From: a virus
DNA: 64,000 bases
Virus record (IMG/VR): IMGVR_UViG_3300025120_014869
Location: 14,261 to 78,260 of that record
Reading direction: 5' to 3' (one strand)
Part shown: in pieces, positions 1 through 34,865 of the stretch
Position numbering within the stretch: position 1 is the first letter of the stretch
How the letters are laid out: every line of letters begins with the position of its first letter
Made by a program: the position numbers and the translations under genes
Notes under the pieces: generated by a model
What the model saw: the letters and a program-made list of their open reading frames with translations, nothing else
Databases searched by the model: none
What the model was told of the DNA's origin: nothing

Positions 1-1
1 T

Positions 2-487
2 GATCTTACTAAAGATGGAGAGTTTAAAAAGTATATTCATTTCGATTTTGTATATTCATCTGCATGTCCTTGTAGTTTTGAATTAAGTGAGCATGCTGAA
101 AAATATCGTAACCGTGCTACTGTACCTCATAGTCAACGTAGTGTTGCAAGAGTAAGTGTACGTTTTGATGATATGTTATGGGTAGAAGATCTTCAGGAGT
201 TATGTCTTGCAGCTTTACAGACTGAAACGCAAGTTATGGTTAAGAGAGAAGATGAGCAAGCATTTGCTGAAATGAATGGTTCATTTTTAAAATTCGTAGA
301 AGATGCAGTAAGATTATTATATGAAAAATTAGCTAATGAATCTCGTATTAAAGATTTTAAGATTGTAGCTTCTCATAATGAAAGTCTTCATAGTCATAAT
401 GCAGTATCAGTTATCGTTAAAGGTGTAGAAGGAGGCTTCTCAGCAGGTGTTGCTAGAGATGTATTTGAAACTACTGGACTTAGATAA
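2..487 (+). CDS. folE2: GTP cyclohydrolase IB (FolE2), 5'-truncated by window edge
   Basis: Frame is open from base 2: ...YSSACPCS...PHSQRS...[10 protein letters not shown]...FVEDAVR...ESLHSHNA, the FolE2/MptA signature motifs. Confidence 0.9.
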
Positions 488-490
488 TAG

Positions 491-649
491 ATGAAATCAC
501 CTCTCGATGATATGTGGCAATTTAACTATCTTTGGGAAAAAATGCAAAAGCGTATAGATGATTTAGAAAATAAAGTAAAACGATTAGAGCATTTTAAAAA
601 AGAACAAATAGAAAAAGAATATAGACAAGATAATGGTAGAAAAAATTAA
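491..649 (+). CDS. Small coiled-coil hypothetical protein (52 aa, not in ORF track)
   Basis: ATG at 491; MKSPLDDMWQFNYLWEKMQKRIDDLENKVKRLEHF...; fills the gap between folE2 and the next gene. Confidence 0.55.
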   Translation: MKSPLDDMWQFNYLWEKMQKRIDDLENKVKRLEHFKKEQIEKEYRQDNGRKN

Positions 650-917
650 AAATTTCTGGATTGAAAGTTATATATCTAATAAGAAAGCATTTTATTTAGA
701 AATTATAAGTTTCTTTTGCGCGGTTACAGCTTCATTTTATCTTGCGTTAACTGCACAAAATCCTAATATGACTTTAGTTTATCCTATATTTTTTATAGCT
801 GCATTTTGTTCATCAATAGCTCACTATAAACGTAAAGTAGCTTTTCCATTATTACTGACAATGTATTTCTGTGTAGTAAATGTATTCGGTTTCGGTAGAT
901 CAATTGATATTTGGTAG
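633..917 (+). CDS. Small membrane protein (about 3 TM helices)
   Basis: Three hydrophobic stretches in 94 aa. Confidence 0.65.
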   Translation: MVEKIKNFWIESYISNKKAFYLEIISFFCAVTASFYLALTAQNPNMTLVYPIFFIAAFCSSIAHYKRKVAFPLLLTMYFCVVNVFGFGRSIDIW

Positions 918-932
918 GAACAATAATATAAT
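904..932 (+). promoter_or_regulatory. Sigma70-like promoter with AGGAAC element
   Basis: TTGATA(904)-N17-TATAAT(927), with AGGAAC at 916; ATG 6 nt downstream. Confidence 0.65.
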
Positions 933-938
933 AAAAGT

Positions 939-1475
939 ATGAACATATTTTGTACTAATGATGATCCTATTTTATCTGCAAATGATCTATGTGACCAACA
1001 TGTAAGATCTAAAATGCAAATTGAAGGAGCAATTATGTTAGCTCATGCATTTGATCAAGAAGTATTGAATCATAAAGATTGTCCTAGAACAAAATTAGGT
1101 AAACCTCGTAAAAGTGGTAAAGGTTATTATAATCATCAATGTAGTATATGGGCTAGAGAAACAAGAGATAATTTTTTATGGTTAGTATTTCATACATTAA
1201 GAATGTTTCACGAAAGAAATTTAAGATGGCCTGATAGCAATCCACATCATACTCAAGCTTTTATTGAATGGTGCGGTGCTAATATGCATAATACTAGTAT
1301 ATCTACGCTAAAAAAAGGTAGAACTCCTTTTGCTATAGCTATTAGTGATAATTGTGAATGTCGTAAAAGTAGTAGTTTTAATAGTTTAACTACTATAGAA
1401 CAATATAGAGAATATATTAGGAAAGATAAACCTTTTGCTACTTGGACTAATAGAAAAAATCCAAGTTGGTATTAA
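939..1475 (+). CDS. Pyrimidine dimer DNA glycosylase / endonuclease V-like protein
   Basis: MNIF..DDP..SA..LCDQHV.SKM..E.A.ML, NH.CSIWARE, YREY...K.FATW pattern of the phage DenV-like family. Confidence 0.75.
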   Translation: MNIFCTNDDPILSANDLCDQHVRSKMQIEGAIMLAHAFDQEVLNHKDCPRTKLGKPRKSGKGYYNHQCSIWARETRDNFLWLVFHTLRMFHERNLRWPDSNPHHTQAFIEWCGANMHNTSISTLKKGRTPFAIAISDNCECRKSSSFNSLTTIEQYREYIRKDKPFATWTNRKNPSWY

Positions 1476-1888
1476 TCTAAGTTACCTTCTGCACTTACAT
1501 CAATAAGACCACCTAGCTGTTCTATAAAATCTTTACCAACTAAGATTTTGTATTCATTCTCTTCTCTATCACCTATTGAGAATTTAGTTTTAGGATAAAC
1601 ATTATCACCTATTTCAATATCAAATTCTACTACTGGTCTTTCTTCTATATTACCTGAACCGACATTTATATCTATTTTTTCTAATAAATCTTTAGTAATT
1701 TTTTTATCATTAACAGTAAAAAAAGTTACTTTATTATCGTGCTCTACTATATTAAAACCATGTAAGACATTATAAGCCCCGTTACCGCTATCTATTTTAG
1801 CTTCAACGGGGCCTAATTCTTTAAAAGTTATAGTTTCAATTAAACCTAATGGTTTATTTGATTCAAAGAAATTTTTAAATGATATCAC
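1472..1888 (-). CDS. Retropepsin-like (RimK-associated Zn-protease family) protease with capsid-targeting-like leader
   Basis: AKIDSGN catalytic D-S-G, ERPVV, ILVGKDFI; N-terminus MISFKNFFES. Confidence 0.75.
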   Translation of the reverse strand: MISFKNFFESNKPLGLIETITFKELGPVEAKIDSGNGAYNVLHGFNIVEHDNKVTFFTVNDKKITKDLLEKIDINVGSGNIEERPVVEFDIEIGDNVYPKTKFSIGDREENEYKILVGKDFIEQLGGLIDVSAEGNLD

Positions 1889-1905
1889 ACAATTATTTAT
1901 GCTTA

Positions 1906-2082
1906 CTAAGCATTCTTCTTGTCTTGAATTTCTTTTCTAATAACTTTCGTTAATTTAGCAATTTCAAGTAAAGCTTTACGAGCTCGTGTACCTGCTGCTG
2001 CATTGCGTTTTTCGTTAAATTTAGTCAAATTTTCTGTAAATTGACCGAATTGTTCGTTTAGTGATTCAATATTCTGTTCCAT
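1906..2082 (-). CDS. Histone H1-like Hc1-family protein (58 aa, not in ORF track)
   Basis: MEQNIESLNEQFGQFTENLTKFNEKRNAAAGTRARKALLEIAKLTKVIRKEIQDKKNA; N.AAGTRARK motif; TAAATA 7 nt upstream. Confidence 0.8.
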   Translation of the reverse strand: MEQNIESLNEQFGQFTENLTKFNEKRNAAAGTRARKALLEIAKLTKVIRKEIQDKKNA

Positions 2083-2105
2083 AATAAACTATTTACTATA
2101 AAAAA

Positions 2106-2372
2106 TTACTTTTTCCAGCTTACTCTCTTCGAACTTTTCTTTTTATACATTTTACCTTTTATTTTATTACATTCTGCTTTAGTAGGTCTACATGCAGGGT
2201 ATGAACCACCAGATTTTTTACTTTTACGTCCGCAAGGACCTCCAGTTTTACAATTAATCCAACCGCTAAATTTTTTACCAGTTTTAGGATCTGTACCTCC
2301 CCTTTTAAACCATTGACGTAAACTATCGCTAGCTTCATTTAAATAAAAATTAGCTAATTCGTCAAATTTCAC
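2106..2372 (-). CDS. Small basic Cys-containing protein, putative capsid-internal protein
   Basis: Leader MKFDELANFYLNE, then K/R-rich domain (WINCKTGGPCGRK...YPACRP). Confidence 0.7.
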   Translation of the reverse strand: MKFDELANFYLNEASDSLRQWFKRGGTDPKTGKKFSGWINCKTGGPCGRKSKKSGGSYPACRPTKAECNKIKGKMYKKKSSKRVSWKK

Positions 2373-2530
2373 GCTAATCCTTTTGCTTCTTTTGATGCGT
2401 GTAATTTATCACCAGCTTTTTTAGCAGCTTTATAAGCCTTAGAACCTTTTCTAGCTGATTTTTTACCAGATTTTTTCTTTTTGTTTATATTAGCCCATAA
2501 ACTTTCTAAAATTGTATCAAATTTATTCAT
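2369..2530 (-). CDS. Small Lys/Ala-rich protein (53 aa, not in ORF track)
   Basis: MNKFDTILESLWANINKKKKSGKKSARKGSKAYKAAKKAGDKLHASKEAKGLA; ATGA and GTGA overlaps with both neighbours. Confidence 0.75.
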   Translation of the reverse strand: MNKFDTILESLWANINKKKKSGKKSARKGSKAYKAAKKAGDKLHASKEAKGLA

Positions 2531-3021
2531 TTTTTCTTCCAAATTTTACCTTTACGGCATCTTACTATTGCACCAGATTTATATGCTGAAGTTTTTTTAC
2601 CATATACGCTATCAGCTTTTCTTTTACAACGATCTTCAGCGTCCTCTTGTTTTACACCTTTATCTCGTAATATTTTATCGAATATATTTGATAAAGTGTT
2701 TTTAACACCTGGTGATAATTGATCTGCTACGTTTTTATTTTTATTTTTTAACATAGCAGGGTAATCTTTTTTAAATAAATTTTCATTTGATTCGCTGTCT
2801 TCAGAATCATGTTTATAATGACCGCTCATTTTAGATTTTCTTAAATGATCTTTTAATGCTTCAACTTTAAGCATTCTATTTAACTTAAGTTTAAGCATAT
2901 CTACATACCTATTACCACCGTACATTTTAACTCTTTCCGGATCTGGGTTTTGAATCATTTTTTTAAGATCTTCGATAGCCTTATTAGATGATTCAGTAAA
3001 AAATTTAAAAGATTCTGTCAT
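2527..3021 (-). CDS. Modular basic protein, putative capsid-internal protein
   Basis: Leader MTESFKFFTE; internal EDAE followed by basic C-terminal module; TAAATA-N5-ATG. Confidence 0.7.
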   Translation of the reverse strand: MTESFKFFTESSNKAIEDLKKMIQNPDPERVKMYGGNRYVDMLKLKLNRMLKVEALKDHLRKSKMSGHYKHDSEDSESNENLFKKDYPAMLKNKNKNVADQLSPGVKNTLSNIFDKILRDKGVKQEDAEDRCKRKADSVYGKKTSAYKSGAIVRCRKGKIWKKK

Positions 3022-3032
3022 ATTATTATTTA

Positions 3033-3233
3033 TTATTTTTTCTTTCCACCCTTCATGTTAGCACACCAATGATACATTTTACCTTTCTCGCCTCCATATT
3101 TTTTAGCTTTTTTTCTAAGTTCAGTTACAGAACCTTTACAACTAGCACCGGATTTTTTTACTCTACCAGGTCTGCTTTTGCCTTTTATCTTTTTATCAGC
3201 ATAATTTTCGTGAAATGTTTTAAAATTTATCAT
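3033..3233 (-). CDS. Small basic protein, putative capsid-internal protein
   Basis: Leader MINFKTFHE; K-rich, HWCANMK motif. Confidence 0.7.
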   Translation of the reverse strand: MINFKTFHENYADKKIKGKSRPGRVKKSGASCKGSVTELRKKAKKYGGEKGKMYHWCANMKGGKKK

Positions 3234-3595
3234 TTTTTCTTCAATCTTTGTGTTTTTTTCTTACTAGCTTCTTTTCTCTTACTAATATATTTAAAAGCAG
3301 CTGTTAATCTTTTCTTTTTAATAGGGTCTTTTACTCTACCCTTTGCAGCTCTAACTCTTTGATGTATTAAATTTATAATTTGTGATTGCCTTGCATGGGA
3401 TTTAGATTTAAAAGTTTTTTTAGTTAATGTATCTCTGATATCAGATGTCGTACTAAATTTTACTTTAACAGTATCTTTAGGATTTTCATCAGTATAAAGT
3501 CTTCTACTTGAACCTTTAGGTTTTTTACCTGTACCTTTCTTAGGATCTGCTTCTAATAGAATTTTTTCTACTAAAGTATCAAATTTTCTTACCAT
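3230..3595 (-). CDS. Basic protein, putative capsid-internal protein
   Basis: Likely start MVRKFDTLVEKILLE (ATG 3595); DPKKGTGKKPKGSSRRLYTDENPKDTV. Confidence 0.7.
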   Translation of the reverse strand: MVRKFDTLVEKILLEADPKKGTGKKPKGSSRRLYTDENPKDTVKVKFSTTSDIRDTLTKKTFKSKSHARQSQIINLIHQRVRAAKGRVKDPIKKKRLTAAFKYISKRKEASKKKTQRLKKK

Positions 3596-3927
3596 TTTCT
3601 GCATGACCAATATCTTGCCATAGTTTTAGGACCTGGATTATCACAATTATGCCTAGCTCTAAATGATTTACGAGCTTTAGGGTTACTTTTACGTATTTTC
3701 ATTGTCTTTTCTCCACGTTTTTTTGCTGATGTACCGCCATGACCGAAGTTAACCTTCTTAACATTACCTGTTTTAGGATTTTTTACATAAACTTTAAATT
3801 TCTTAACGTCACCTCTCATTGGTTTATTTAATTTTACTTTACGACCTCTATATTCAGCATCTTCAGATGATGCCATAACTGGCCCATATTCATTTAAAAG
3901 TTCTATTACTAAATTATTAAACTGCAT
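3589..3927 (-). CDS. Basic protein, putative capsid-internal protein
   Basis: Leader MQFNNLVIELLNE; EDAE-YRGRKVKLNKP...KKVNFG...ARKSFRARHNC...RYWSC. Confidence 0.75.
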   Translation of the reverse strand: MQFNNLVIELLNEYGPVMASSEDAEYRGRKVKLNKPMRGDVKKFKVYVKNPKTGNVKKVNFGHGGTSAKKRGEKTMKIRKSNPKARKSFRARHNCDNPGPKTMARYWSCRKW

Positions 3928-3932
3928 AATTA

Positions 3933-3950
3933 TATTTATTTAATTAAATA
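3933..3950. promoter_or_regulatory. Back-to-back late promoters
   Basis: TATTTA 3933-3938 and TAAATA 3945-3950, each 5 nt from a divergent ATG. Confidence 0.7.
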
Positions 3951-3955
3951 ATAGT

Positions 3956-4510
3956 ATGGATAAAGAAACTAATTTGATTTTTGAAAAATACAAACAAGTA
4001 AATGAAGCTTTAGGGTTAGGTCCTAATACACCTTCTATGATTCATATAAAAGTTGGTGAAACTAAAGCTTTGAGACCAAAAACTCAACCACCAACTGAAG
4101 ATGAAATGGTTTTTATTCAAGCAGGTGATAAAGAAGAGGATTCAGATTGCGGTTGCGGAGGAGAATCTGAAGATGATTGCGGTTGCGATAGTAAAGAAGG
4201 TAAAACAATTTACGATGGTGAATTAGATATGGCTAGATTAGAATTATTAAAAGCTAATGAATACGCTGCAAAACTTTTTCATCATATAGGTAATCACCCT
4301 GATAGTGATTATTTAGAAGGCTGGGTTGCAAGTAAAATAACTAAAGCAGCTGATTATCTATCTTCTGTTTATCATTATCTAGATTATGAAGATAATTTTG
4401 CTACTAGAGAACCTTGTTATAGCGATGAGGAAGAAAATGAAGACGAAGATCTAGAAATAGACGATGATGAAATGACTAAAACAGCTCGCGAGTCTGGTTT
4501 TGGTGCTTAA
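3956..4510 (+). CDS. Acidic late protein with duplicated DCGC motif
   Basis: MDKETNLIFEKY leader; DCGC twice (13-nt repeat at 4145 and 4175); helical LEGWVASKITKAADYL domain. Confidence 0.75.
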   Translation: MDKETNLIFEKYKQVNEALGLGPNTPSMIHIKVGETKALRPKTQPPTEDEMVFIQAGDKEEDSDCGCGGESEDDCGCDSKEGKTIYDGELDMARLELLKANEYAAKLFHHIGNHPDSDYLEGWVASKITKAADYLSSVYHYLDYEDNFATREPCYSDEEENEDEDLEIDDDEMTKTARESGFGA

Positions 4511-6402
4511 ATTAACTTATTATCAAAAATACGTTTAATTTCTTCATCAAATGAACCGTAAAGATCAGTAATTAAGTTTCTTCTTAGTGTATCATCACCT
4601 GATTTATAAAGATATCTAATTTCTGAAGCACTTCTTATATCTTTATCTAATATATCAAAATCCATAGTAGGTAATGTTACGATATATCCATGTTTATCTA
4701 AAGTTTCAGACTTATCTAAATTTTCAAAAGGTTGGAAGTAACTAGGAGTACCATTTTTCTTAGTCCCGAACTTAAATCTCGGTTTATCACCTTCCATATC
4801 TTTAGCTGATACTGCAAAAATAAGAATTGTATTATCTGCAGTGTAATCTTGAACGATTTCTTTAGCTAAATATGGATTTACTACTTTTTTAACAAAATTA
4901 GGGTCAATTCCAGAACTTTGTATCATTTGAACTTTTTCATCGTAAGTAAATGGTGATCTTTCTGGATCAGTCTTTTCAGAAGTTGATATAAAAACGTCAC
5001 CATTAGGAAATTCCTGTTTTAGTTTATTATAAACTGAAGCATGACCTTTATGAAAAGGGTGAAATCTACCAGGATATATAACTAATATTTTTTTAGTAAC
5101 GTTATCATTAAATTCTTTTAAAAAATTATACATTTCACCAAAGGTATCTATAGAATGTCTTAATCTGGTACCTTCCCCAGTGTTAAATACTGGAGGGTTA
5201 TTAATATAATTTTCTTCATCACTTGGTTTACCTGCTAAAAAATTAGCTCTACTAAATTCTAACCTATCTACTAATTTTATTGCATTACCATCTCTATCAA
5301 TTGCTACATACCCTTCAGGAGAGGTTACTTTTAATGTACCATCACCGTTATCTATAAAATGTTTAGTAGTATATACAGCATTATTATATTTGTTTATAAA
5401 AATTTGTTTAGCATCAGAAAGTAACTTACTTACTTTAAAGAGATTAATAATATTATCTTTATCTCTTTTTATTTCATTTAATTTTTTAGTATATAGTAAT
5501 TTAACCTTTGATTTACCAGTATCACTTTTTCTTTTAGCAATTTCTCTTTCCATTCTACCTAAAAACCAATTTATAAAGCTATTATAAGAATCTTCAGGGT
5601 CTTTTAAGTATTCCCCTTCTTTAATTTCTACATTAGTGTAGATGTTTATAAGATCTAAAGGTAAGTCATTATAATCTACGTTTATACCATCTACAACATT
5701 TAAAATACCTTTTATTTGCTCTGACTCATCTTTAGTTAAAGTAACTACACCAGTATCATCTTTAAAATAAGCATCATCAACCCAAATATCATTAACTTCA
5801 TTTAAATTATCAATTTTAGCACCAAATCTAGCACCACCACCTAAATCATCATACTCAGTATGAAATATAATACCAAATTTAGATTCTTTTACCTTTTTAC
5901 CTAACTCAGAATCTTCTTCAATAGCATATTTTATTGTATTTGGTTTAAAAGTTATATGAGAAGTACCATCTATATCTTCTATTCTTTTAGATGAATCATC
6001 AAACATAAAATCACCTTGTAAGATATTTTTTATACCTAATTGAGGTAAGTATTTTAATGCTTTTTTAAGTTTATCAGCTAAACCTGGTGAACTACCATGA
6101 TTTAAATCAATATCACTCTCTGTATAATTAAACTTAGGGTTCATATTGAAAATAGATTTAGTACCAACAAAAAACTTACCGTTTTCAGGATTAATACCTG
6201 CAAATAATGCTGGTGCTCCGTCCCATTTAACTGTAGTACCTATTCTACCACTGTTAGTTTCAAGATGATTTAATAAATCATGTATAAATTTTCTTGCTAA
6301 TGTATATCCATCTTTACCCTTTTTAAGAATAAGTTCTTCTAAATGAGTTAAATGAGTATTAGCCTTTTTCTGCTCAGTAATATATTGTTTTAATGTTTTC
6401 AT
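4507..6402 (-). CDS. Fusion: ligase-fold nucleotidyltransferase + HxGH (cytidylyl/adenylyl)transferase
   Basis: Start reassigned to MKTLKQYITE (ATGA overlap at 6399-6402); KWDG, LQGD, EGYV, IKLV ligase-like motifs; C-terminal YPGRFHPFHKGH and RSASEIR. Confidence 0.75.
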   Translation of the reverse strand: MKTLKQYITEQKKANTHLTHLEELILKKGKDGYTLARKFIHDLLNHLETNSGRIGTTVKWDGAPALFAGINPENGKFFVGTKSIFNMNPKFNYTESDIDLNHGSSPGLADKLKKALKYLPQLGIKNILQGDFMFDDSSKRIEDIDGTSHITFKPNTIKYAIEEDSELGKKVKESKFGIIFHTEYDDLGGGARFGAKIDNLNEVNDIWVDDAYFKDDTGVVTLTKDESEQIKGILNVVDGINVDYNDLPLDLINIYTNVEIKEGEYLKDPEDSYNSFINWFLGRMEREIAKRKSDTGKSKVKLLYTKKLNEIKRDKDNIINLFKVSKLLSDAKQIFINKYNNAVYTTKHFIDNGDGTLKVTSPEGYVAIDRDGNAIKLVDRLEFSRANFLAGKPSDEENYINNPPVFNTGEGTRLRHSIDTFGEMYNFLKEFNDNVTKKILVIYPGRFHPFHKGHASVYNKLKQEFPNGDVFISTSEKTDPERSPFTYDEKVQMIQSSGIDPNFVKKVVNPYLAKEIVQDYTADNTILIFAVSAKDMEGDKPRFKFGTKKNGTPSYFQPFENLDKSETLDKHGYIVTLPTMDFDILDKDIRSASEIRYLYKSGDDTLRRNLITDLYGSFDEEIKRIFDNKLI

Positions 6403-7421
6403 CTTGATCCTACAAGGGTACAATCCCAGCCTCCACCATCAGCTCTATGACCGAAATCTAATACACCTTTTAAATTATTTATTTGAATATAAAAATCACT
6501 AATATTAGTTAAATTTTTCATATTTACAGACTGTAAAGCTAGATCATTACCAATATTATTAAAAGCTAAAAAATTATCAAACCCTTGAGCTTTTTTATAT
6601 TCAAATAACTGTACAACACCACCTATATACCTTAATAGATTAACTCCAAGTTTAGCAGACTTACCTCTTAATTTACCTTTCCGTAAGAAATAATCTCTTT
6701 CTACTACTAATCTATCATATAAATTATTATTTTTAGCTAATTCTATTATTTCACCTTTAGAATCCGGTACACCGCAATAGTGAGCTATAAACTCGCATAT
6801 TAATTCAAGTTGTTGATTATCATCTTTACCTTCCTCTTGTAGTTTTTCAAAATTAGTTTTTAAAGCTGCTGTCTTAAACATTCTACCACTAGGACCTTTT
6901 AATTCTACTTCTAAACCACCGGTACTTAAATCACCTTTCTTAGGTTTAATACCATCGGTTAAAAAAGCTAAAAATAATTCACCACATCCTGGTGATCCAT
7001 GCGTTGGAGCTTCTGGTACTGCACACCATGCGCTGCTAAAATAATTGTTATATACATCAGAGTTATGGAAACTATTTTTTACAAAAGCTTCTAACGTAAA
7101 AAACGAACTGTTTTCACATAATCCTAAAAAATCTGATTGAGCATGCTTAAAATTTTCTTCTTTTACTTCTAAATTAGCGCTATGAGAAAAACTTTGAAAA
7201 ATATTTAAATTATCATTTATATTACCACCTGCTTTATCTAATCTACCTTCAATTTCTTGTCTACCTGCTATACTATCAGTGGTACCCATCTTGACATACC
7301 TGGATAAAATATCATCATAATAGTTTTGATCTACATTAGCAAGTAGTTCATAGCTATCACCTTTTTTTGTATAAAGAGAAACGTCTTCTTTATAAATTTT
7401 ATCTAAAGATCTCCAGCTCAT
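6399..7421 (-). CDS. Putative PD-(D/E)xK nuclease-fold protein
   Basis: GCGELFLAFL...KGDL....LEVELKG matches E...GD...ExK catalytic spacing. Confidence 0.55.
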   Translation of the reverse strand: MSWRSLDKIYKEDVSLYTKKGDSYELLANVDQNYYDDILSRYVKMGTTDSIAGRQEIEGRLDKAGGNINDNLNIFQSFSHSANLEVKEENFKHAQSDFLGLCENSSFFTLEAFVKNSFHNSDVYNNYFSSAWCAVPEAPTHGSPGCGELFLAFLTDGIKPKKGDLSTGGLEVELKGPSGRMFKTAALKTNFEKLQEEGKDDNQQLELICEFIAHYCGVPDSKGEIIELAKNNNLYDRLVVERDYFLRKGKLRGKSAKLGVNLLRYIGGVVQLFEYKKAQGFDNFLAFNNIGNDLALQSVNMKNLTNISDFYIQINNLKGVLDFGHRADGGGWDCTLVGSR

Positions 7422-7744
7422 ACATCTATATCTATATCAGTTGAATATTTTTTCATGATATTGATTAATAGAGAAAGAGAACTTTTTGCATTTTTTTCAT
7501 TAATGTCTCCTAAACTAGTAATTGAATCAACATCATTAGAATCGATTTGTGTTACTAAAGCTTTTTTAATCATTCTAACTAAAAGTACCTCAGATTCAGG
7601 AGATAGTTTTTCAACCTCTGGTTCAGGTTGTTCTGCTACTTCGGTATCAGTAACTGTGGTAGTATCTGTTTCCATACCAGGTAATTCAGCACCTGTTTCA
7701 TCTTGTTCAAATACTTTATCAAATGCTTCTAAAAATTTTTTCAT
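7418..7744 (-). CDS. Acidic hypothetical late protein
   Basis: Leader MKKFLEAFDKVFE; acidic Thr-rich linker; ATGA overlap. Confidence 0.7.
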   Translation of the reverse strand: MKKFLEAFDKVFEQDETGAELPGMETDTTTVTDTEVAEQPEPEVEKLSPESEVLLVRMIKKALVTQIDSNDVDSITSLGDINEKNAKSSLSLLINIMKKYSTDIDIDV

Positions 7745-7745
7745 T

Positions 7746-8162
7746 TTATTTTATTCCCTCCGCTGCAGTTTTTATTTTACCTGCTATTTTTCTCATCATA
7801 ACCCCGTAAGCTTTATTAACTTCTTTTTGAGGATCTGGACCGAAAAGTCTTTCTTTTTCTGGACCAGTTGTTAATCTTTGAGCAATACCTATTGCATCTT
7901 CTGTAGATTTATCTAAAAACTCATTTTCAGCATCTTCAATTTCATTTGTCATATTATTAATTTTATTTAAAAATGACTTAAATTTTTGAGGATCGCTAAA
8001 TCTTAATCTACTTAAAATATCAGTTGCTTCTTCATTCTTTCCAGCTTTAATTAATTCGAAAACTTTAGATTCTAAATCTTCTTCATTTTCATCAGCTGCA
8101 TATTGATTTTCATATACCTTTTCAGCTAATATCTTATTAGCTATGCTTGTAAACTTATCCAT
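7746..8162 (-). CDS. Hypothetical late protein
   Basis: Leader MDKFTSIANKILAE; TAAATA-N5-ATG. Confidence 0.7.
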   Translation of the reverse strand: MDKFTSIANKILAEKVYENQYAADENEEDLESKVFELIKAGKNEEATDILSRLRFSDPQKFKSFLNKINNMTNEIEDAENEFLDKSTEDAIGIAQRLTTGPEKERLFGPDPQKEVNKAYGVMMRKIAGKIKTAAEGIK

Positions 8163-8170
8163 ATTATTAT

Positions 8171-8740
8171 TTATCTAATTAAAAGAAGTTTTGTTGATAA
8201 CTTGTTGAAGTAATCTTTATTTAAAAAAGTTAATTCATATCTTTTAGTAAACTTCTTTATATTAGAAAATGTATACCTACTAATATCAATTTTGTTTATT
8301 TTAGATATCATTGAATTAATAGTAGTTTGAGCTTTACCATCATTTTTATCAATAAGAAAAGTTAGGTATCCAATTGAGAATTTACTTATGTATATTTTTA
8401 CCGGTAATAATTTTTCTACCTTTCTTAAAGTATTATTAAAAAATAATAATAAATCCTTTTCTTTATAATATTTAAATATTTCACAATCATCTAACTGGGT
8501 ATTATTAAAGTAAATTAAAGTTTTACTTTTTGATTTTAATACCTTTTCACATACACCTAATATTATATAATGAAAGAAAAATTTCTTAACTAAAGAGTTA
8601 TTAATACTTTTATCTAACAACTTATATTCATGTAATGTATTAATTATTTCAGGTTGTATATCTTTAATAAACAAGTCATTAAAATCTACAATATTTAAAT
8701 CATAATTATCTAAACATAAATCAGGCATCATTATTATCAT
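8171..8740 (-). CDS. Hypothetical protein
   Basis: Long ORF packed between neighbours; true start may be the ATG near 8731. Confidence 0.65.
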   Translation of the reverse strand: MIIMMPDLCLDNYDLNIVDFNDLFIKDIQPEIINTLHEYKLLDKSINNSLVKKFFFHYIILGVCEKVLKSKSKTLIYFNNTQLDDCEIFKYYKEKDLLLFFNNTLRKVEKLLPVKIYISKFSIGYLTFLIDKNDGKAQTTINSMISKINKIDISRYTFSNIKKFTKRYELTFLNKDYFNKLSTKLLLIR

Positions 8741-9155
8741 TATAATACTGTTCCAGTAATTCTTTAGGTGGTCTACCTATTCTACAGTTTATAATACCAT
8801 TATAATAATTTTCATCCAATAATACATCTTTTTCAAATTGCATCTTTGATTCATAATAAGCTAATTCAAACTTATTATTACAAAACTTTAAAATTTTAAA
8901 AACAAATTTATCTAAACCTAATGTACCCATATCTATTTTCAAGGAATCGCTACTACCAACATAGGTTTTCCAATCACTTTCTTTATAGTCAATACGTTTA
9001 CGTTTTTTACCTTTAAGAGGTAAGCGTTTTATTTTACGCTTCATTTGTTTTTTACCTATATATTTTTTACCGTTAGTTATATTAACGATCTCATATATAA
9101 AGCCAAACGCTTCTTCAGGTACAGGGCCGTAAACTTTCCAGTGACCTGTATCCAT
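8721..9155 (-). CDS. GIY-YIG family endonuclease (short, stand-alone)
   Basis: GFIYEIVNITNGKKYIGKK...ESDWKTYVGSS...YYE...YYN. Confidence 0.8.
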   Translation of the reverse strand: MDTGHWKVYGPVPEEAFGFIYEIVNITNGKKYIGKKQMKRKIKRLPLKGKKRKRIDYKESDWKTYVGSSDSLKIDMGTLGLDKFVFKILKFCNNKFELAYYESKMQFEKDVLLDENYYNGIINCRIGRPPKELLEQYYNDNNDA

Positions 9156-9403
9156 TAAGATAAACCGTTGATGTAATTAGTAACTGCAGCTTGCACGTCT
9201 GAATAAGTCCAATCGCTGCCATAATTTGCATCACTTAATTCAGATAAATTTATAAAATTACCATCACTATTTAAAACAACTTGTATTTTTTTAATCCCTG
9301 GTGCATCTATTATTCTAGTTATAGATACTTCTGAGTAAGATTCAGTCACTGCAGGTTGAGTGGTAACTGTTTTTTCTGCTGATAAAGTCAATGTTAAGCT
9401 CAT
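9155..9403 (-). CDS. Hypothetical late protein
   Basis: TAAATA-N5-ATG; TAATG overlap with the next gene. Confidence 0.65.
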   Translation of the reverse strand: MSLTLTLSAEKTVTTQPAVTESYSEVSITRIIDAPGIKKIQVVLNSDGNFINLSELSDANYGSDWTYSDVQAAVTNYINGLS

Positions 9404-9411
9404 AATATTAT

Positions 9412-9663
9412 TTATTTACGTTTTTTACGTTTTCTACGTTTTTTTCCTGTAACACCTTTTCTTGTTTGAACTGCTCCTAAAGCAAAAGGTCTTCTAAAAT
9501 CACCTGGAGCATAAAAATCAGTATTAGATAATGTTTGAGGTTTAGAAATAGCATTAGCTCCTAATGCACCGCCTCCTACTGTATTTTCGTCTTCTTCTTT
9601 AGTTTTTTTCTTTTTATTTAAACTTTTTTTAAAAGCTTTTTCAAATAGAGTTGTTTTCTTCAC
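9412..9663 (-). CDS. Small protein with highly basic tail
   Basis: TATAAATA-N5-GTG; DFYAPGDFRRP; ends KKRRKRKKRK. Confidence 0.7.
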   Translation of the reverse strand: MKKTTLFEKAFKKSLNKKKKTKEEDENTVGGGALGANAISKPQTLSNTDFYAPGDFRRPFALGAVQTRKGVTGKKRRKRKKRK

Positions 9664-9684
9664 GTAAGTATTTATAATTATAAT

Positions 9685-10080
9685 GTGGATATTTTAGAAA
9701 AGTATATAAGTGAGATAGAAAAAGATTTAGAGATCAATGAATTTAATCTTAAAGATTCATCGATGAAAACTCCTGCTCGTAAACATTATTGGGTAAGTAA
9801 ACTTATCAATCATAAAAAAAATCTTATTAGGTTAAAAAAGGAAAAAGATAATTTAAAGAAAAATATAACATTTCAAATTATTGAGGAAAGTCCAATCAAA
9901 GTAACAACTCCAACTGCTGAAAGAGCTGCATTGAATCATGAAAAAATGATAACTATGTCAGAAAAAATAAAAGAGGAAGAATTGGTTATTGAATTTTTAG
10001 AAAAGACTGAAAAAACTTTTAGTGCTATTGGTTTTGATATAAAAAATATTATTGAAATTATGAAAATGGAACAATTATGA
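9685..10080 (+). CDS. uvsY: Recombination mediator UvsY
   Basis: DLEINE..L...SMKTP..KHYW...GFDIKNIIE; directly upstream of uvsW. Confidence 0.75.
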   Translation: MDILEKYISEIEKDLEINEFNLKDSSMKTPARKHYWVSKLINHKKNLIRLKKEKDNLKKNITFQIIEESPIKVTTPTAERAALNHEKMITMSEKIKEEELVIEFLEKTEKTFSAIGFDIKNIIEIMKMEQL

Positions 10081-11510
10081 TTGAGTTTAAATTAGATAAA
10101 AATAAAATTAAAGTTGTAACTTCTAATTTAGATGAAATAAGAGAGTATTTTAGTGTTAATGACGATACAGCAAGATTTAGATTTAAAGGTAGAGCAAGAT
10201 TTATAGTCTCGCCTAGAATATATTGTATAACACCAACAGGTTTATTTGAACCTGGAATGTTTTATGATGTTTTGACTTATATAAAAATGCAATATCCGAA
10301 TGAAGATATTATAGTTGATAATGATATAACTTCTTTAGTAAAGCCAGTTCTTAAAGATGTAAAATTGTATAATAATTTAAAGTATGAATTGAGAGATTAC
10401 CAACAAGAAGCTTGTAAAAATGCTATTGCATTTGGTAGAGGTATTCTTAAAATGGGTACCGGTGCTGGTAAAACTTTAACTATATGTTCTTTATTAATGA
10501 GTTTATATCTTCAAAAAAAAGAAAAGAAGGAATCATTTAAATGCTTATTAATTGTACCAGATTTAGGTCTTGTTAGTCAAACATATACTGATTTTGAGCA
10601 GTATAATGCGTTATTTAAATTTACTAAATGGACAGGAAAAAATAAACCAGATTTAACAGCAAATGTTATTATTGCTAATTTAGGTATATTACAAAGCCGT
10701 TTTATTGAAAATGATTGGTTGAAAGAAGTAGATGCTCTTGTTATAGATGAGTGTCATAAAGTTAAAAAATCAAATAAGATTAGTAAAATGGTACAGCAGA
10801 TAAAAACAGCACATAAATTCGGTTTAACTGGTACGTTACCTGATAATAAACCTGATGAATGGAATATTAAAGGTAAAATAGGAAAGGTAATTTATGATAA
10901 AGATAGCTATGAACTAAGACTAGAAAAGTATCTAACTACAGTAAACGTTAGTATTATAGATTTAAAATATAATGATAAGCCTTTATACGTTTCAGGTACT
11001 AATAATTTTAAAAATGAACTTGATTTTATATATACAAATGAATTTAGAAATAATTTAATAAAAGGTATGTGTAGTAAATTTGATAATAATTCTCTTATAT
11101 TAGTTAATCATTTAGCACATGGTGATGCGTTATATAATAAACTCTCAGAATGCGAAAATAAGCAAGTATTCTTTGTAAAAGGAGAAGTAGAAGTTGAGAC
11201 TAGAGATGAAATTAAAAAAATAATGGAAACTAATAATAATGTTATTTGTATAGCAATGAGTTCAATTTTTAGTACAGGTATTAATATTAAAAATATACAT
11301 ATGATTATGTTTGCATCTGGTGGTAAAAGTTTTATTAGAACAATTCAATCTATAGGTAGAGGTTTAAGATTACATGATAATAAAAATAAATTAGTAATAA
11401 TAGATTTAGCAGATCACTTAAAATATGGTGAAAGACATTCCCTTAAGAGAAAAGAAATATATAATCAAGAAAAAATAAATTATAAAATTACTGAAATAGT
11501 TGAAAAATAA
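10077..11510 (+). CDS. uvsW: SF2 DNA helicase UvsW
   Basis: LRDYQ, GTGAGKT, DECH, GLTGT, STGINI, QSIGRGLR. Confidence 0.92.
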   Translation: MIEFKLDKNKIKVVTSNLDEIREYFSVNDDTARFRFKGRARFIVSPRIYCITPTGLFEPGMFYDVLTYIKMQYPNEDIIVDNDITSLVKPVLKDVKLYNNLKYELRDYQQEACKNAIAFGRGILKMGTGAGKTLTICSLLMSLYLQKKEKKESFKCLLIVPDLGLVSQTYTDFEQYNALFKFTKWTGKNKPDLTANVIIANLGILQSRFIENDWLKEVDALVIDECHKVKKSNKISKMVQQIKTAHKFGLTGTLPDNKPDEWNIKGKIGKVIYDKDSYELRLEKYLTTVNVSIIDLKYNDKPLYVSGTNNFKNELDFIYTNEFRNNLIKGMCSKFDNNSLILVNHLAHGDALYNKLSECENKQVFFVKGEVEVETRDEIKKIMETNNNVICIAMSSIFSTGINIKNIHMIMFASGGKSFIRTIQSIGRGLRLHDNKNKLVIIDLADHLKYGERHSLKRKEIYNQEKINYKITEIVEK

Positions 11511-11532
11511 ATATTTTATTCTATAATTAGAT

Positions 11533-12012
11533 ATGGCTAATACTAAAAAAACTACCACGAAAAAAACTACTGGTAAAAGACGAGGACCTAAACCTAAAAA
11601 GACTGAATACTATGTTGATCCTCGAGATTTAAAAGCTGAACTAGTAGCTTATTATGATAGTGAAGATTGTTCTAGAGAACTTGCTGATATGATTCATAAA
11701 ATAGCCCATGGTTTAAGTTATTCATCTAATTTTATAAACTATACATATAGAGATGAAATGGTAGGAGACGCATTAGTAAAAATGTATACTGCAGTTACAA
11801 ATAAGAAATTTGATATAACGTCTGAATATAATCCATTTAGTTATTTTACTACTATTGCTTTTCATGCGTTTATTAACCGTATAAAGAAAGAAAAGAAACA
11901 TACTGAAACTTTAAACCAATATAAAGAAAAGGTTTATGAACAAGAAATGATCGACTCAACTGATGGCATGGTTTACGTTAAGCCGTTAAATGAAGACGAT
12001 AGTGATGAGTAG
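11533..12012 (+). CDS. gp55: Late transcription sigma factor gp55
   Basis: KIAHGLS...NFINYTYRDEMVGDA...NPFSYFTTIAFHAFINRIKKEKK. Confidence 0.92.
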   Translation: MANTKKTTTKKTTGKRRGPKPKKTEYYVDPRDLKAELVAYYDSEDCSRELADMIHKIAHGLSYSSNFINYTYRDEMVGDALVKMYTAVTNKKFDITSEYNPFSYFTTIAFHAFINRIKKEKKHTETLNQYKEKVYEQEMIDSTDGMVYVKPLNEDDSDE

Positions 12013-20518: not shown

Positions 20519-21254
20519 AATAGTAATAACGTTAAGCGGTGGAATGGACTCTGCAGTTCTTTTATATAAAGCTGCAGAAGAATATAATGAAGTACATACT
20601 GTTACTTTTGATTACGGTCAAAGGCATCATAGAGAATTAATTTCTGCAGAGAAGCAACTCTTAAATGTTCGTCATGATTTTCCTAATGTAGTTTTTACTA
20701 ATAAAATATTAGATGCAAAATATATTAAAAATATAGCACCGGTATCATCTCTTACTAATGATGATATTGATACCCCTAATGTTAAGGATGTGATGGGTGA
20801 AGCTCAGCCGAAAAGCTATGTACCTTTTCGTAACTTAATGTTTTTAAGTATCTTATTATCATATGCTGAAGCTTTAAAAGCAGAGGAAGTTTGGTACGGT
20901 GCAGCAGAAGCTGATAGTTTAGCTGGTTACTGGGATGGCTCCGTTCAGTTTGTTGATAAAATGAATCAAATATGTTTATTAAACCGGGAAGTCGATGTAA
21001 GAGTTAGAGCTCCTCTCTTAGAAATGAGTAAGAAGGAAATTATTTTAAATGGTATTGAATTAGGTGTTAATTTTGCTGATACTTATACCTGTTATTCCGG
21101 AGAATATCCTTGTGATGCTGAATCAGCAAGTAGTGCATTAAGACTTAAAGGGTTTGTAGATGCAGGTTTTAGAGATCCTTTAGTATATAAACAGCAGGAT
21201 AAGCTTAATAAAGTTTACGATAGTAGCAATTGTAAGAATATAGTTACTGACTAG
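20505..21254 (+). CDS. queC: 7-cyano-7-deazaguanine synthase QueC (divergent)
   Basis: LSGGMDS, FDYGQRH, YVPFRN, TYTCY; YPDC and C-terminal Cys motifs altered. Confidence 0.88.
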   Translation: MKKNKIVITLSGGMDSAVLLYKAAEEYNEVHTVTFDYGQRHHRELISAEKQLLNVRHDFPNVVFTNKILDAKYIKNIAPVSSLTNDDIDTPNVKDVMGEAQPKSYVPFRNLMFLSILLSYAEALKAEEVWYGAAEADSLAGYWDGSVQFVDKMNQICLLNREVDVRVRAPLLEMSKKEIILNGIELGVNFADTYTCYSGEYPCDAESASSALRLKGFVDAGFRDPLVYKQQDKLNKVYDSSNCKNIVTD

Positions 21255-22525
21255 TAACCGTGTCTAAACATTCTTTCAATTTGATGATGCCTATGCATCT
21301 CATTTCTACCTCTTTCAATCATATCTATATTAATTTGTTGAGGTGATAATGCAATTTCTTCATTATCTTCTTCAGATTCTGATTCTACTTCATCATTATA
21401 TACTTTCATAAGACTTTTATAAGTTTCAGGTGATTTACTATGCAAATCTTTTAAAACTTTTTTAGCTTCTTCTTCTTTACCTTTTTTAAGTAATTCGTAA
21501 AATGTATCGTGTAAATCAATTACTTCATTATCTTCTTCTTCATCACAAGTTTCTTCATCACTTTTTCTTAATTTACCTGTAACTGGGCATCTTTCTGCAT
21601 CTTCTTCTTGATCTTCATCTGAATCATCTTTTTCTTCAGATTTTTCCATTGCATCAGCAATAGCTTGACCTCTATTTTTTTCATACTCTGAAAGTTCACC
21701 GTCATTATCAAGATCTGATTTTTCTTTATCTATTTCAGCATCTTCTTCATGACTATGACCACCAATAGGTTGATCAGGGTCTATAGATTCATCTCCAAAC
21801 ATTGTAGCTAATTCACGAGGATCCATTCTTTCGTCATTATAAACGTTACCTGGATAATCTTCTTCACCTTCTGGAAAGTCTGCTACTAATTTTTCTCTGG
21901 TACCCATGTCTATCTCTCCACCAAACTTATCAACCGTTTCTGTTTCACTTGGTTTAACAATAACAACTGATACGATGTCTTTTTTATCAATATCATCTAA
22001 ATTGATTTTGGTACCTTTGAAATTATTAAGAGTTACTCTGTATTTTAAACCATCTTTTACAATTGAATAAAGATCATTATCACCAACATCTCCTTCTGAT
22101 CTTAATACAGCATCATCACCTAAATTAAGTTGTAATGTTTCGAAACCTGTATCACCTCTTTTAAGATCACTTTCGGCAGCTCCTTTTTCTCTAGTAGTAA
22201 TTTTAATATCACCTCTTGTAGCTAAAGGTTTAGATACGTTAGAAACGATATTAATAGCTTGTTGAACATCATCATCAGAAAGACTTTCAATATCTAACTC
22301 AGGATTTTGCTTTTGCAAAAATCTAATTACTTTAGTAGCAAAATATCTTGGTGTCATTGTACCTTTTAAATTTCTTATATCTTGCATACCCATTAATTTT
22401 GCTCTCAATGGATCTGATATTTTCTTACCCCTTGCTTCTTCAACAACGTCGTAATCTTGACCCATCATATAATTAGATGTATCTTCAACAATAATCTTTT
22501 TTTCTTTCCAGTTATCTAAACTCAT
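21251..22525 (-). CDS. Large acidic late protein (putative prohead core/internal protein)
   Basis: TAAATA-N5-ATG; repeated EEDAE/EEDNE; EF-hand-like DLDNDGELSEYE. Confidence 0.75.
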   Translation of the reverse strand: MSLDNWKEKKIIVEDTSNYMMGQDYDVVEEARGKKISDPLRAKLMGMQDIRNLKGTMTPRYFATKVIRFLQKQNPELDIESLSDDDVQQAINIVSNVSKPLATRGDIKITTREKGAAESDLKRGDTGFETLQLNLGDDAVLRSEGDVGDNDLYSIVKDGLKYRVTLNNFKGTKINLDDIDKKDIVSVVIVKPSETETVDKFGGEIDMGTREKLVADFPEGEEDYPGNVYNDERMDPRELATMFGDESIDPDQPIGGHSHEEDAEIDKEKSDLDNDGELSEYEKNRGQAIADAMEKSEEKDDSDEDQEEDAERCPVTGKLRKSDEETCDEEEDNEVIDLHDTFYELLKKGKEEEAKKVLKDLHSKSPETYKSLMKVYNDEVESESEEDNEEIALSPQQINIDMIERGRNEMHRHHQIERMFRHGY

Positions 22526-33833: not shown

Positions 33834-34865
33834 ATGATATCCGTACCTGAGCAGTATGTTATAGATGTACTATATGAGAATGTTTATAAAATCTCATATA
33901 ACAAATATACTAAAACCTATAATGGTTGCTGCCCTATATGTAAAGAAGGAGGTTCTTGGGGTAAAAAGAAAAGATTTTATTATATACCTAATAAAGAATT
34001 AGCTTATTGTCATAATTGCGGTTACAGTAAAAAAGCTCTCGTCTTTATTACTGAAGTTACTAATAAACCTCTTCATTTTGTTATAAATGAAATAAAAGAC
34101 TTTGATACTGAAATTATAATTGATAAAAAAGAAGAGGTAATAAAAAAAGAAATTAATAAAAGTTTACCTGAAGATTGTATTAATTTATCTGATGTAAGTC
34201 AAATAGAATATTATAAAGATGATCCAGCAGTTAAAGAAGCTTTAAGGATTATAAAAGAAAGAAAATTAGATAAAGGTATTAATAAACCTAAAACGTTTTA
34301 TATTTCATTAAACGATCCTGTACATAAAAATAGATTAATATTACCTTTCTATAATGAAATAGATGAAATTATATTTTATCAGAGTAGAGGTTTATTAAAA
34401 AAAGATTTATTTAATAAACCAAAGTATCTGAGTAAAGTTAATGCAGAAAGAAGTTTATATGGGGTACAAAATATTGATTCTTCTTTAGAACAAGTTTTTG
34501 TATTTGAAGGACCTATAGATAGTTATTTTTGTAAAAATGGATTAGCTACTTGCGGTATTACAGAAAATAGCAATAGAATGTTTACATCATTGCAGAAAGA
34601 ACAGTTAAATAAACTTAACTTTTATGATAAAATTTATGTATTAGATAATCAATGGTTAGATAAAGCAGCATTGAATAAAAGTATAATTTTAGCAGGTAGT
34701 AATGAAAAAGTATTTGTATGGCCTAAAGAATTAAAAACCTTTAAAGATTTCAATGAAATATGTGTTGCAGGTAATAAAGACAAAATAAGACCTGAATTTA
34801 TATTAAAAAATACATATTCAGGTCTTAAAGCTAAAATTTTATTAACTGAAATAAAAAATAGTTAA
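33834..34865 (+). CDS. gp61: DNA primase gp61
   Basis: CPIC...CHNC zinc domain, YQSR, PKYL, FEGPIDS, LDN, KDFNE. Confidence 0.92.
   Translation: MISVPEQYVIDVLYENVYKISYNKYTKTYNGCCPICKEGGSWGKKKRFYYIPNKELAYCHNCGYSKKALVFITEVTNKPLHFVINEIKDFDTEIIIDKKEEVIKKEINKSLPEDCINLSDVSQIEYYKDDPAVKEALRIIKERKLDKGINKPKTFYISLNDPVHKNRLILPFYNEIDEIIFYQSRGLLKKDLFNKPKYLSKVNAERSLYGVQNIDSSLEQVFVFEGPIDSYFCKNGLATCGITENSNRMFTSLQKEQLNKLNFYDKIYVLDNQWLDKAALNKSIILAGSNEKVFVWPKELKTFKDFNEICVAGNKDKIRPEFILKNTYSGLKAKILLTEIKNS

Follow-up and report, generated by a model that had tools for sequence, protein, structure and literature searches.

Internal proteins that carry a short N-terminal capsid targeting sequence (CTS), together with variable internal protein (IP) loci, are textbook biology of bacteriophage T4, and within the T4 CTS residues 4 and 7 serve targeting whereas residues 8 and 10 serve processing (PMC9026906). 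The T4 propeptides (NC_000866) include MKTYQEFIAE/A of IPII and IPIII, MKTFKEF...ITE/A of IPI, MLKEQLIAE/A of gp22, ..QLLIE/T of gp21, MAKINELLRE/S of gp24, ..LVLE/N of gp68, MELITE/L of Alt and ..FLTE/A of gp23, where the slash marks the site after the terminal Glu. Here we describe leaders of this kind on a series of late proteins encoded in a 64,000-base stretch of viral DNA (the window, bases 14261–78260 of the 78,260-base record IMGVR_UViG_3300025120_014869), with a gene block at positions 1472–9663 as the principal subject.

We consider it likely that no fewer than 14 late proteins, a number that may rise to about 23 over the 78-kb record, start with a T4-type capsid-targeting propeptide that is cut after Glu. 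The tally stands at 14 strong and about nine weaker cases, and the figure of about 15 cargo proteins given in an initial annotation of the window is therefore reasonable. By analogy with T4 IPI–III, Alt, gp22 and gp24, the leader would direct its protein to the prohead, and the protein would be cut after Glu. Some of the proteins may then be ejected and act in the host; the role in host takeover or anti-defence suggested in the initial annotation is hypothetical.

A block of leader-bearing late genes

All 11 N-termini quoted in the initial annotation were found at their open reading frames (ORFs) in a leftward block running from 8162 to 1472 on the minus strand. The ORFs stood as described, but three of the starts are not ATG (1888 GTG, 2372 GTG and 2542 TTG); these are supported by orthologues in relatives. 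The leaders are 6–21 residues long, with an aromatic or aliphatic residue near position 4, another three residues on, and a hydrophobic-(x)-Glu end. The block and its flank contain the following features.

1472–1888, minus strand: 138-aa acidic retropepsin-like protein (PF05618, DSG motif), leader MISFKNFFE/S
1906–2082, minus strand: 58-aa Hc1 histone-H1-like basic protein (PF07432, 2.7e-17, residues 3–57), no separable leader
2106–2372, minus strand: 88-aa very basic protein (mature isoelectric point, pI, 10.5), leader MKFDELANFYLNE/A, GTG start, no promoter of its own
2369–2542, minus strand: 57-aa basic protein, leader MEEKMNKFDTILE/S, TTG start at 2542 most likely
2527–3021, minus strand: 164-aa basic protein, leader MTESFKFFTE/S, late promoter box upstream
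3033–3233, minus strand: 66-aa basic protein, leader MINFKTFHE/N, module fused elsewhere (P0067)
3230–3595, minus strand: 121-aa basic protein (pI 11.1), leader MVRKFDTLVEKILLE/A
3589–3927, minus strand: 112-aa basic protein, leader MQFNNLVIELLNE/Y, short linker, 'AEYRGRKV' domain (phrog_7595)
3956–4510, plus strand: 184-aa acidic protein, TAAATA-N5 upstream, weaker leader MDKETNLIFE/K (or ..QVNE/A)
4507–6402, minus strand: 631-aa protein joining DUF6267 (KxDG nucleotidyltransferase-like) to an NMNAT-like HxGH domain, leader MKTLKQYITE/Q
5113–5136, minus strand: internal relic leader EMYNFLKE/F, residues 423–430 of the 631-aa protein, at the joint of the enzyme halves
6399–7421, minus strand: 340-aa protein of unknown fold, leader MSWRSLDKIYKE/D
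7418–7744, minus strand: 108-aa acidic protein, leader MKKFLEAFDKVFE/Q
7746–8162, minus strand: 138-aa protein, leader MDKFTSIANKILAE/K, late promoter box upstream
8171–8740, minus strand: 189-aa ORF without leader, within the block
8721–9155, minus strand: SegE-type GIY-YIG homing endonuclease without leader (PF19835, 2e-29), inserted in the leader-gene block
9155–9403, minus strand: 82-aa ORF without leader, within the block
9412–9663, minus strand: 83-aa basic protein whose gene opens the leftward unit, weak leader MKKTTLFE/K
9669–9676, minus strand: TATAAATA late-promoter box, 5 nt ahead of the 9663 start

The array had originally been drawn as far as 9663; the gene at that end (9412–9663) is a weak case, and four ORFs within the range (1906–2082, 8171–8740, 8721–9155 and 9155–9403), namely the Hc1-like histone, the SegE-type endonuclease and two unknowns, are leaderless. 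The Hc1-like gene starting at 2082 was not counted because its 'SLNE' falls within the Pfam domain. This Chlamydial Hc1-type protein sits among small basic late proteins in the same late operon and may condense packaged DNA.

Orthologues were compared chiefly in G001, the nearest long relative (185 kb, terminase 84% identical), which is syntenic across the cluster. The retropepsin-like gene has its GTG start 5 nt downstream of ATAAATA and its Pfam domain from about residue 12, and its leader is kept in the orthologues of L102 and G001. The G001 orthologue of 2369–2542 begins with ATG (MEEKITFDQLVE), and the mature SLWANINKKKK module of this 57-aa protein is fused to other modules in other phages (e.g. 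P0095). Similarly, the ADPKKG module of the 121-aa protein follows ..LYE/A or ..IAE/A joints in other phages, and the C-terminal Cys/Lys module of the 164-aa protein is shared with the virion-detected gp160 of cyanophage S-CREM2.

The 631-aa fusion carries a second leader-like element within its sequence. In cyanophages its two halves are separate genes with a leader only on the second, and the stand-alone enzymes begin MRFRQFIIE/A or MKNFSSFLTE/A. The relic EMYNFLKE/F is kept in L102, L103 and G001 and lies at the joint between the DUF6267 and NMNAT-like parts, so the two halves may be cut apart in the head; we regard it as a candidate internal cut site on the basis of its sequence. In the 340-aa family, Glu12 is invariant among 13 homologues and always stands in a hydrophobic-hydrophobic-x-E context, even where an 18-residue insertion precedes it. 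The AlphaFold model of this protein has a mean pLDDT of 64, and a Foldseek search against PDB gave no match at E<=0.001; an invariant GD..ExELK stretch allows the guess of a PD-(D/E)xK nuclease.

Leaders match T4 propeptides and end where leaderless homologues begin

Four leaders of the block (MKTLKQYITE, MINFKTFHE, MISFKNFFE and MTESFKFFTE) follow the same plan as the T4 propeptides. The mature parts have no Pfam or PHROG match to the T4 IP or Alt families; the CTS class is defined by the leader, and homology of the cargo is not required.

Homologues of DUF6267 from 80 viral contigs are either leaderless (MGKANTH, MAKANTH, MGAANTH) or carry a leader of 5–11 residues, which always ends in hydrophobic-hydrophobic-x-Glu directly ahead of [GA][KA]ANTH (for example MRTILKE, MSLLDE, ..VALTE, ..SLIAE and ..FITE, with the conserved start ..ANTHLTHLEE downstream). 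The protein is leaderless in S-PM2 and S-SZBM1 and bears a leader in HTVC008M, Melnitz and C48C1. A cut after this Glu would match the N-terminus left by methionine removal in the leaderless forms.

The 'AEYRGRKV' domain of the 112-aa protein, with more than 8000 relatives, gives a second view of the boundary. In three phages outside the T4-like group (siphovirus Kolga, podovirus HTVC111P and roseophage CRP-901) the protein begins at the domain, M/AKYQGR.., and T4-like versions consist of a leader (M-x-F-[DN]-x-L...E or MLSFKDFYE), then a linker that varies and is often acidic, and the domain. The residue before AEY is E or D in 94/94 distinct N-terminal regions of the T4-like versions, 44 of which begin M-x(1-3)-F-[DNKSQ]-x-[LFYI]. 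In some relatives, other small basic modules of the cluster are fused ahead of the domain (P0095, P0067). The domain, sometimes annotated HVA1, is found in marine metagenomes; its carriers comprise a Nitrosopumilaceae spindle-shaped virus as well as myo-, sipho- and podoviruses.

The Pfam domains of the retropepsin-like protein and of two further proteins encoded upstream of the window, a superoxide dismutase and a Nudix hydrolase, likewise all begin downstream of the leader, and about 20 leaders of orthologues in G001, L102 and L103 retain the Glu at the boundary. Taken together, these comparisons support the view that the leaders are separable add-ons outside the conserved domains, ending at a Glu that would mark the mature N-terminus. 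The likeness to T4 CTS and gp21 cleavage sites proposed at the outset thus holds both in the match to real T4 sequences and in the coincidence, in two families, of the terminal Glu with the N-terminus of leaderless homologues.

Head machinery of the required kind is present in the relatives. G001 encodes a Peptidase S77 (gp21-type) starting MSLNLIVE/T and a gp22-like scaffold starting MDIKQILSE/A, and its gp23 reads ..WCLNE/AG at the position of the T4 cut. Peptidase S77 is also found in the more distant relatives G002 and G003, and occurs together with the same leaders in S-CREM2, S-SZBM1, C48C1, HTVC008M and Melnitz.

Leader-bearing proteins in virions of cultured relatives

Published proteomes of cultured relatives allowed the leaders to be compared with virion content. 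In S-CREM2, 52 proteins were detected in virions purified in caesium chloride (PMC10665884). With N-termini taken from the GenBank record, the following virion-detected proteins begin with leader-type sequences.

S-CREM2 ORF6: S-adenosylmethionine (SAM) hydrolase, MKDFDSFLEE
S-CREM2 ORF13: hypothetical protein, MKDLHSFLTE
S-CREM2 ORF14: kinase, MKRFDAFLTE
S-CREM2 ORF15: hypothetical protein, MNFSEFNE
S-CREM2 ORF136: hypothetical protein, MQTFSMFFSE
S-CREM2 ORF154: cytidylyltransferase, MKNFSSFLTE/A

Among S-CREM2 ORFs 6–17, the seven undetected neighbours all lack a leader-type start. Outside the structural modules, the strict leader was present in 5/13 detected and 5/125 undetected ORFs (p=6e-4, with a pattern chosen post hoc). 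Over all S-CREM2 ORFs the contrast was not significant (5/50 vs 7/168, p=0.11), as expected, since tail and capsid parts, for which no leader is needed, make up most virion proteins. Peptide coverage in the virions was 11–26% for the leader-bearing kinase, SAM hydrolase and cytidylyltransferase (PMC10665884). In S-SZBM1, the cytidylyltransferase _140 (MRFRQFIIE/A) is in the virion list and the adjoining leaderless DUF6267 protein _141 is not (PMC9146016); the same paper names prohead core proteins in its virion protein list.

Occurrence of the same tag on non-structural proteins whose presence in relatives' virions is known from mass spectrometry indicates that the leader probably marks proteins packed with the DNA. 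The initial annotation had called such a payload uncharacterised, which is right only in part: virion-associated cytidylyltransferases, kinases and a SAM hydrolase of cyanophages are in print, in papers that do not use the phrase 'capsid targeting sequence' (neither the S-CREM2 nor the S-SZBM1 paper; PMC10665884, PMC9146016). The S-CREM2 authors leave open how the enzymes enter the virion, and their paper makes no mention of a leader, targeting, a propeptide or gp21 (PMC10665884); its supplement contains no peptide lists. A literature search, with subscription journals outside its coverage, found no paper tying CTS-like leaders to pelagimyophages or cyanophages.

Proposed route into the head and nature of the cargo

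Under the propeptide reading, the leader would dock its protein on the gp22/gp21 scaffolding core during prohead assembly, so that the protein becomes enclosed; a gp21-type (Peptidase S77) protease would then cut after Glu and free the mature protein inside the head, where it would stay with the packaged DNA. Seven carriers are small and basic (pI 10–11) and are probably DNA-binding internal proteins. Several acidic carriers may be core components like T4 gp67, which is degraded. The enzyme-type carriers are the retropepsin-like protease and the DUF6267–NMNAT-like fusion, to which the 340-aa unknown is added.

A broader reading, which we put forward tentatively and hold to be possible rather than probable, is that the leader serves as a portable, sequence-readable address label across Kyanoviridae-type marine phages and loads a changeable protein kit into the head for delivery with the DNA. 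The kit would comprise the NMNAT-like/ligase-like fusion, the retropepsin-like protease, a superoxide dismutase, a Nudix hydrolase and the seven basic DNA-binding modules; protease-cut joints (E/A) would be the places where its modules are exchanged and fused, and the phages using the label would include pelagimyophages, methylophages and cyanomyophages.

The alternative that survives best accepts prohead targeting and cutting, and holds that most carriers are scaffold or core proteins or DNA-condensing fillers, degraded or structural, and not host effectors. Net charges of -13 to -48 for the proteins starting at 7744, 3956, 35565, 38900 and 22525 resemble the acidic tail of T4 gp67, seven carriers are tiny, lysine-rich and free of any enzyme domain, and gp22 and gp21 of G001 bear the same N-terminal motif. 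However, enzymes with intact catalytic motifs (retropepsin DSG, HxGH, KxDG) carry the leader too, and the leader-bearing kinase, SAM hydrolase and cytidylyltransferase of S-CREM2 persist in mature virions. The 'AEYRGRKV' domain is also present in podo- and siphoviruses that lack T4-type heads, and it must therefore have a function of its own. As an account of most carriers we judge this alternative unlikely; for the acidic and basic carriers in particular, the core-or-filler reading stays open.

Leader similarity exceeds chance

The motif by which the leaders had first been recognised, hydrophobic-x-E or hydrophobic-E, proved nearly uninformative: it was present in 15/17 cluster genes, in 39/88 genes elsewhere (44%) and in 43% of internal windows. 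A tighter pattern, devised after seeing the data and requiring [FLY]-x-x-hydrophobic-x(1,2)-E in residues 2–18, was found in 12/17 cluster genes and 18/88 elsewhere (Fisher 1e-4), and in 9.7% of internal windows. When N-termini were shuffled at the same composition, the tighter-pattern count was reached in 0/2000 trials. As a benchmark, the two patterns were applied to 144 annotated T4 genes, where they matched 30% and 17% of N-termini and found 4 and 2 of the 9 true propeptides. These patterns thus fail on T4 ground truth, so that they measure enrichment only and cannot classify single proteins, a use that was dropped after the benchmark.

A motif-free test, in which every gene pair was scored by the best ungapped BLOSUM62 match between first residues, showed that the 17 cluster N-termini are more alike than random 17-gene sets (permutation p=0.0002); the best-connected genes in this score are candidates inside and outside the cluster. 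It replaced our own de novo motif search (expectation maximisation, ZOOPS model, first 22 residues, 105 genes), which overfitted. The expected enrichment of the motif in late over non-late genes was borne out, the leader pattern occurring in 24/60 genes of late transcription units and 6/40 of early ones (p=0.006). Among the late genes, those for tail and baseplate showed no enrichment (3/17). When 23 candidates were compared, their mature parts proved free of paralogy save for one nested pair and one 42-residue stretch, in agreement with the original description of the proteins as otherwise unrelated.

These results bear on a second alternative, namely that the similarity reflects chance, AT-rich codon bias (Lys, Phe, Asn and Ile after the start) and 5'-end constraints of leaderless mRNAs and holds no protein signal. 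The genome has only about 28% G+C, most genes begin 5–6 nt after a TAAATA or TATAAT box, so that their mRNAs look leaderless, and loose motifs match 17–30% of T4 N-termini and 20% of the other window genes. Nevertheless, the observed count was absent from all composition-matched shuffles, tail and early genes of the same promoter geometry lack the motif, and seven of the leader-bearing genes lack a dedicated promoter. The leader boundary equals the mature N-terminus of homologues, and the same leader occurs on virion-detected proteins of cyanophages with higher G+C and Shine-Dalgarno-type upstream regions. This explanation is accordingly very improbable.

Least credible of all is an amphipathic N-terminal peptide that docks to a partner other than the prohead (a chaperone, membrane, protease adaptor or radical-SAM maturase-like modifier): maturases of ribosomally synthesised, post-translationally modified peptides and some adaptors do recognise substrates by leaders shared among unrelated proteins, and G001 has three radical-SAM-like genes in an island adjoining its cluster copy, but the record has no Radical_SAM match, nor do the ORFs of 1–12000, the island is absent from it while the leaders persist there, the leaders have the T4 protease motif at their end, go together with S77 in phages and predict virion detection, and the carriers include proteins of 340–631 aa, not peptides.

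Several observations weigh against propeptides of the T4 type in this phage. Every regular-expression statistic is post hoc, and such patterns have a false-positive rate of 15–30% on T4. Weak single cases may be chance (9663, 3956, 35152, 22525, 39239 and, all upstream, the superoxide dismutase, the Nudix hydrolase and a 404-aa protein). Glu is often followed by S, N, Q, K, Y, D or F, as compared with Ala at 6/10 of the T4 sites compared, and the depletion of internal hydrophobic-x-E in basic proteins was not significant after control for composition (1 observed vs 3.4 expected, p=0.12). A clear leader is absent in 8/13 non-structural virion-detected S-CREM2 proteins, and the S-CREM2 authors warn of co-purifying abundant proteins (PMC10665884). 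The 78-kb fragment holds no head genes, the head protease included, which is known from relatives only. Finally, cutting and ejection have been demonstrated in T4 only, and the virion proteomes compared come from cultured relatives. On balance the T4-type propeptide remains the reading we prefer: the leaders occur in lineages with a gp21-type protease and on proteins detected by mass spectrometry in relatives' virions.

Genome context and late expression

The record, estimated by CheckV to be 37% complete, encodes a T4-type replication module (DNA polymerase, UvsX, gp41, gp32, gp45, gp44, gp46/47, primase, UvsW and UvsY), a T4-type large terminase and a contractile-tail module. Upstream of the window lie 7-deazaguanine genes and a curli csgF/csgG operon, the latter already described for pelagimyophages (PMC7029224). 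The source of the window is a pelagimyophage-type, T4-related phage. Its late sigma factor is encoded as follows.

11533–12012: gp55 late sigma factor

Start codons lie 5–7 nt downstream of a box, TATAAT in early and replication genes and TAAATA in late ones, as at 11533, 16344, 19418, 27355 and 33834 on the plus strand and at 1888, 3021, 3927, 8162 and 9663 on the minus strand. A Shine-Dalgarno sequence is missing ahead of box-started genes across the whole window; given this spacing, most mRNAs look leaderless. Late expression of the leader genes is indicated at the sequence level by TAAATA or TATAAATA boxes 5 nt before their starts or heading their operons, and both gp55 and the gp45 clamp are encoded. 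TAAATA-N5 boxes precede the starts at 1888, 3021, 3927, 8162 and 9403 (minus strand) and 3956 (plus strand); the seven leader genes noted above lack a promoter.

Leader candidates outside the block and in relatives

Four further sites named in the initial annotation (35565, 35588, 38900 and 55862) are real, each with the arrangement TATAAATA-N5-ATG. The candidates outside the block are the following.

21251–22525, minus strand: 424-aa very acidic late protein, weak leader ..KKIIVE/D, possible gp67-like core protein
34862–35152, minus strand: 96-aa acidic protein, weak leader MNNEEKIIFE/R
35155–35565, minus strand: 136-aa acidic protein, leader MSLYVKKFSKFLNE/Q
35588–35971, plus strand: 127-aa protein, leader MHSKVNFNDFLSQLNE/D
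38313–39239, minus strand: 308-aa acidic protein MTRVNTLTE.., longer ORF from the start at 39239
55287–55862, minus strand: 191-aa protein, leader MARKFLKLIE/N

The genes starting at 35565 and 35588 are divergent, with starts 23 bp apart and overlapping TATAAATA boxes (35571–35578 minus, 35575–35582 plus). A second in-frame start lies nested within 38313–39239 at 38900, served by a separate TATAAATA-N5 box and giving the leader MKSTFDKLFE/N; both starts (39239 and 38900) and both promoters are conserved in G001 (122173–123063).

Two candidates were rejected. The tail-module gene at 46861 (MSENFNDILNE) was excluded since its Glu is replaced by Gln in G001, and the gene at 38248 (MDTFSKFF..) was left out of the count, lacking the Glu that the G001 orthologue has. 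The latter ORF (37940–38248, minus strand) begins MDTFSKFFTNHRHRR and its G001 orthologue begins MLRFCKFYE/NKYQGAKPGINHRHRR; the window copy seems to have lost Glu and nine residues through a deletion.

Upstream of the window, the Fe/Mn superoxide dismutase gene (L186, G000:C1, 1201–1842, minus strand) encodes an N-terminal extension of 15 residues, MNYSELSNLILE/Q, which is also conserved in G001, and the Nudix hydrolase (L186 1839–2228, minus strand) begins MRISLFKE/F. Both genes stand downstream of TAAATA boxes and are possible extra cargo, as weak cases.

Among the relatives, the complete Kyanoviridae genome of phage C48C1 has a similar leader cluster (L185 1656–11667) with the leaders MMLDFKNFITE, MLSFKQFVSE, MITFKKYLEE, MKKFTEIRE, MKKFKQYIDE and MKTFQEFMKQFEEE, the last of which is near the T4 IPIII leader. 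In G001, an island of about 12 kb lies between the Hc1-like gene and the basic-protein cluster (L088 1–7500 = G001:C1:76000–83500); besides the three radical-SAM-like genes it contains glycosyltransferase-like ones, and the window lacks it.

Comparison with known systems

What is new here is a CTS-type set in pelagimyophage-type phages, with carriers that are unusually numerous and modular, and the link between the leader and cyanophage virion proteomes, which is not made in searchable papers. If the leader works as in T4, the capsid-carried proteins of marine T4-like phages could be listed from sequence, a range covering phages of SAR11, OM43 and picocyanobacteria, mostly uncultured. Were the address-label reading true, the 'injectome' of uncultured phages of SAR11-type hosts would be readable from their genomes. 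A leader of T4 type would also account for the finding, in purified cyanophage virions, of enzymes such as cytidylyltransferase/NMNAT, kinases and SAM hydrolase. Ahead of phage gene expression, the factors to act would be an NAD-related enzyme, a protease, a possible superoxide dismutase and DNA-binding peptides.

The set resembles T4 IPI, IPII, IPIII and Alt in a leader of 6–19 residues that is hydrophobic at 4 and 7 and ends in hydrophobic-x-Glu, and in late genes. It also shares with the T4 internal proteins unrelated mature parts that include small basic proteins and an enzyme, and, as far as relatives show, a gp21/gp22/gp23 head pathway in the lineage. In contrast to T4, the mature parts are not homologous and there are 14–23 carriers instead of four; leader length is more variable, the residue after Glu is often not Ala, and the carriers are clustered beside the replication module. 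The variable IP loci of T4 relatives, in the 1994 work as cited in PMC9026906, similarly keep the leader and exchange mature parts between related phages. As described through that citation, those loci comprise few genes in close T4 relatives, whereas the present set belongs to Kyanoviridae-type marine phages, with modules fused and reshuffled at E/A joints.

The virion enzymes of S-CREM2 and S-SZBM1 (PMC10665884, PMC9146016) are comparable in that PF01467 corresponds to the C-terminal half of the 631-aa protein, the leader is the same and the phages carry S77. In those cyanophages, unlike here, DUF6267 is separate and leaderless; in the window it is fused and leader-bearing. SPN3US and phiKZ belong to the jumbo phages and have an inner body, long propeptides and a cleavage context of another kind. 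Their ejection (E) proteins are numerous and non-structural, become enclosed in the head, undergo trimming by a T4-related prohead protease and reach the host with the DNA (PMC5694885, PMC7411985), a course that would resemble the one proposed for the set described here. They are not known to have a short CTS-like N-terminal tag common to all. The Dar anti-restriction proteins of phage P1 are packaged in the head, have N-terminal targeting regions, and are injected and DNA-protecting (PMC9024508, PMC12810830); they differ in hierarchical loading via DarA/Hdf, in having no T4-type core with post-Glu cleavage, and in bearing no sequence relation to the leader proteins of the window.

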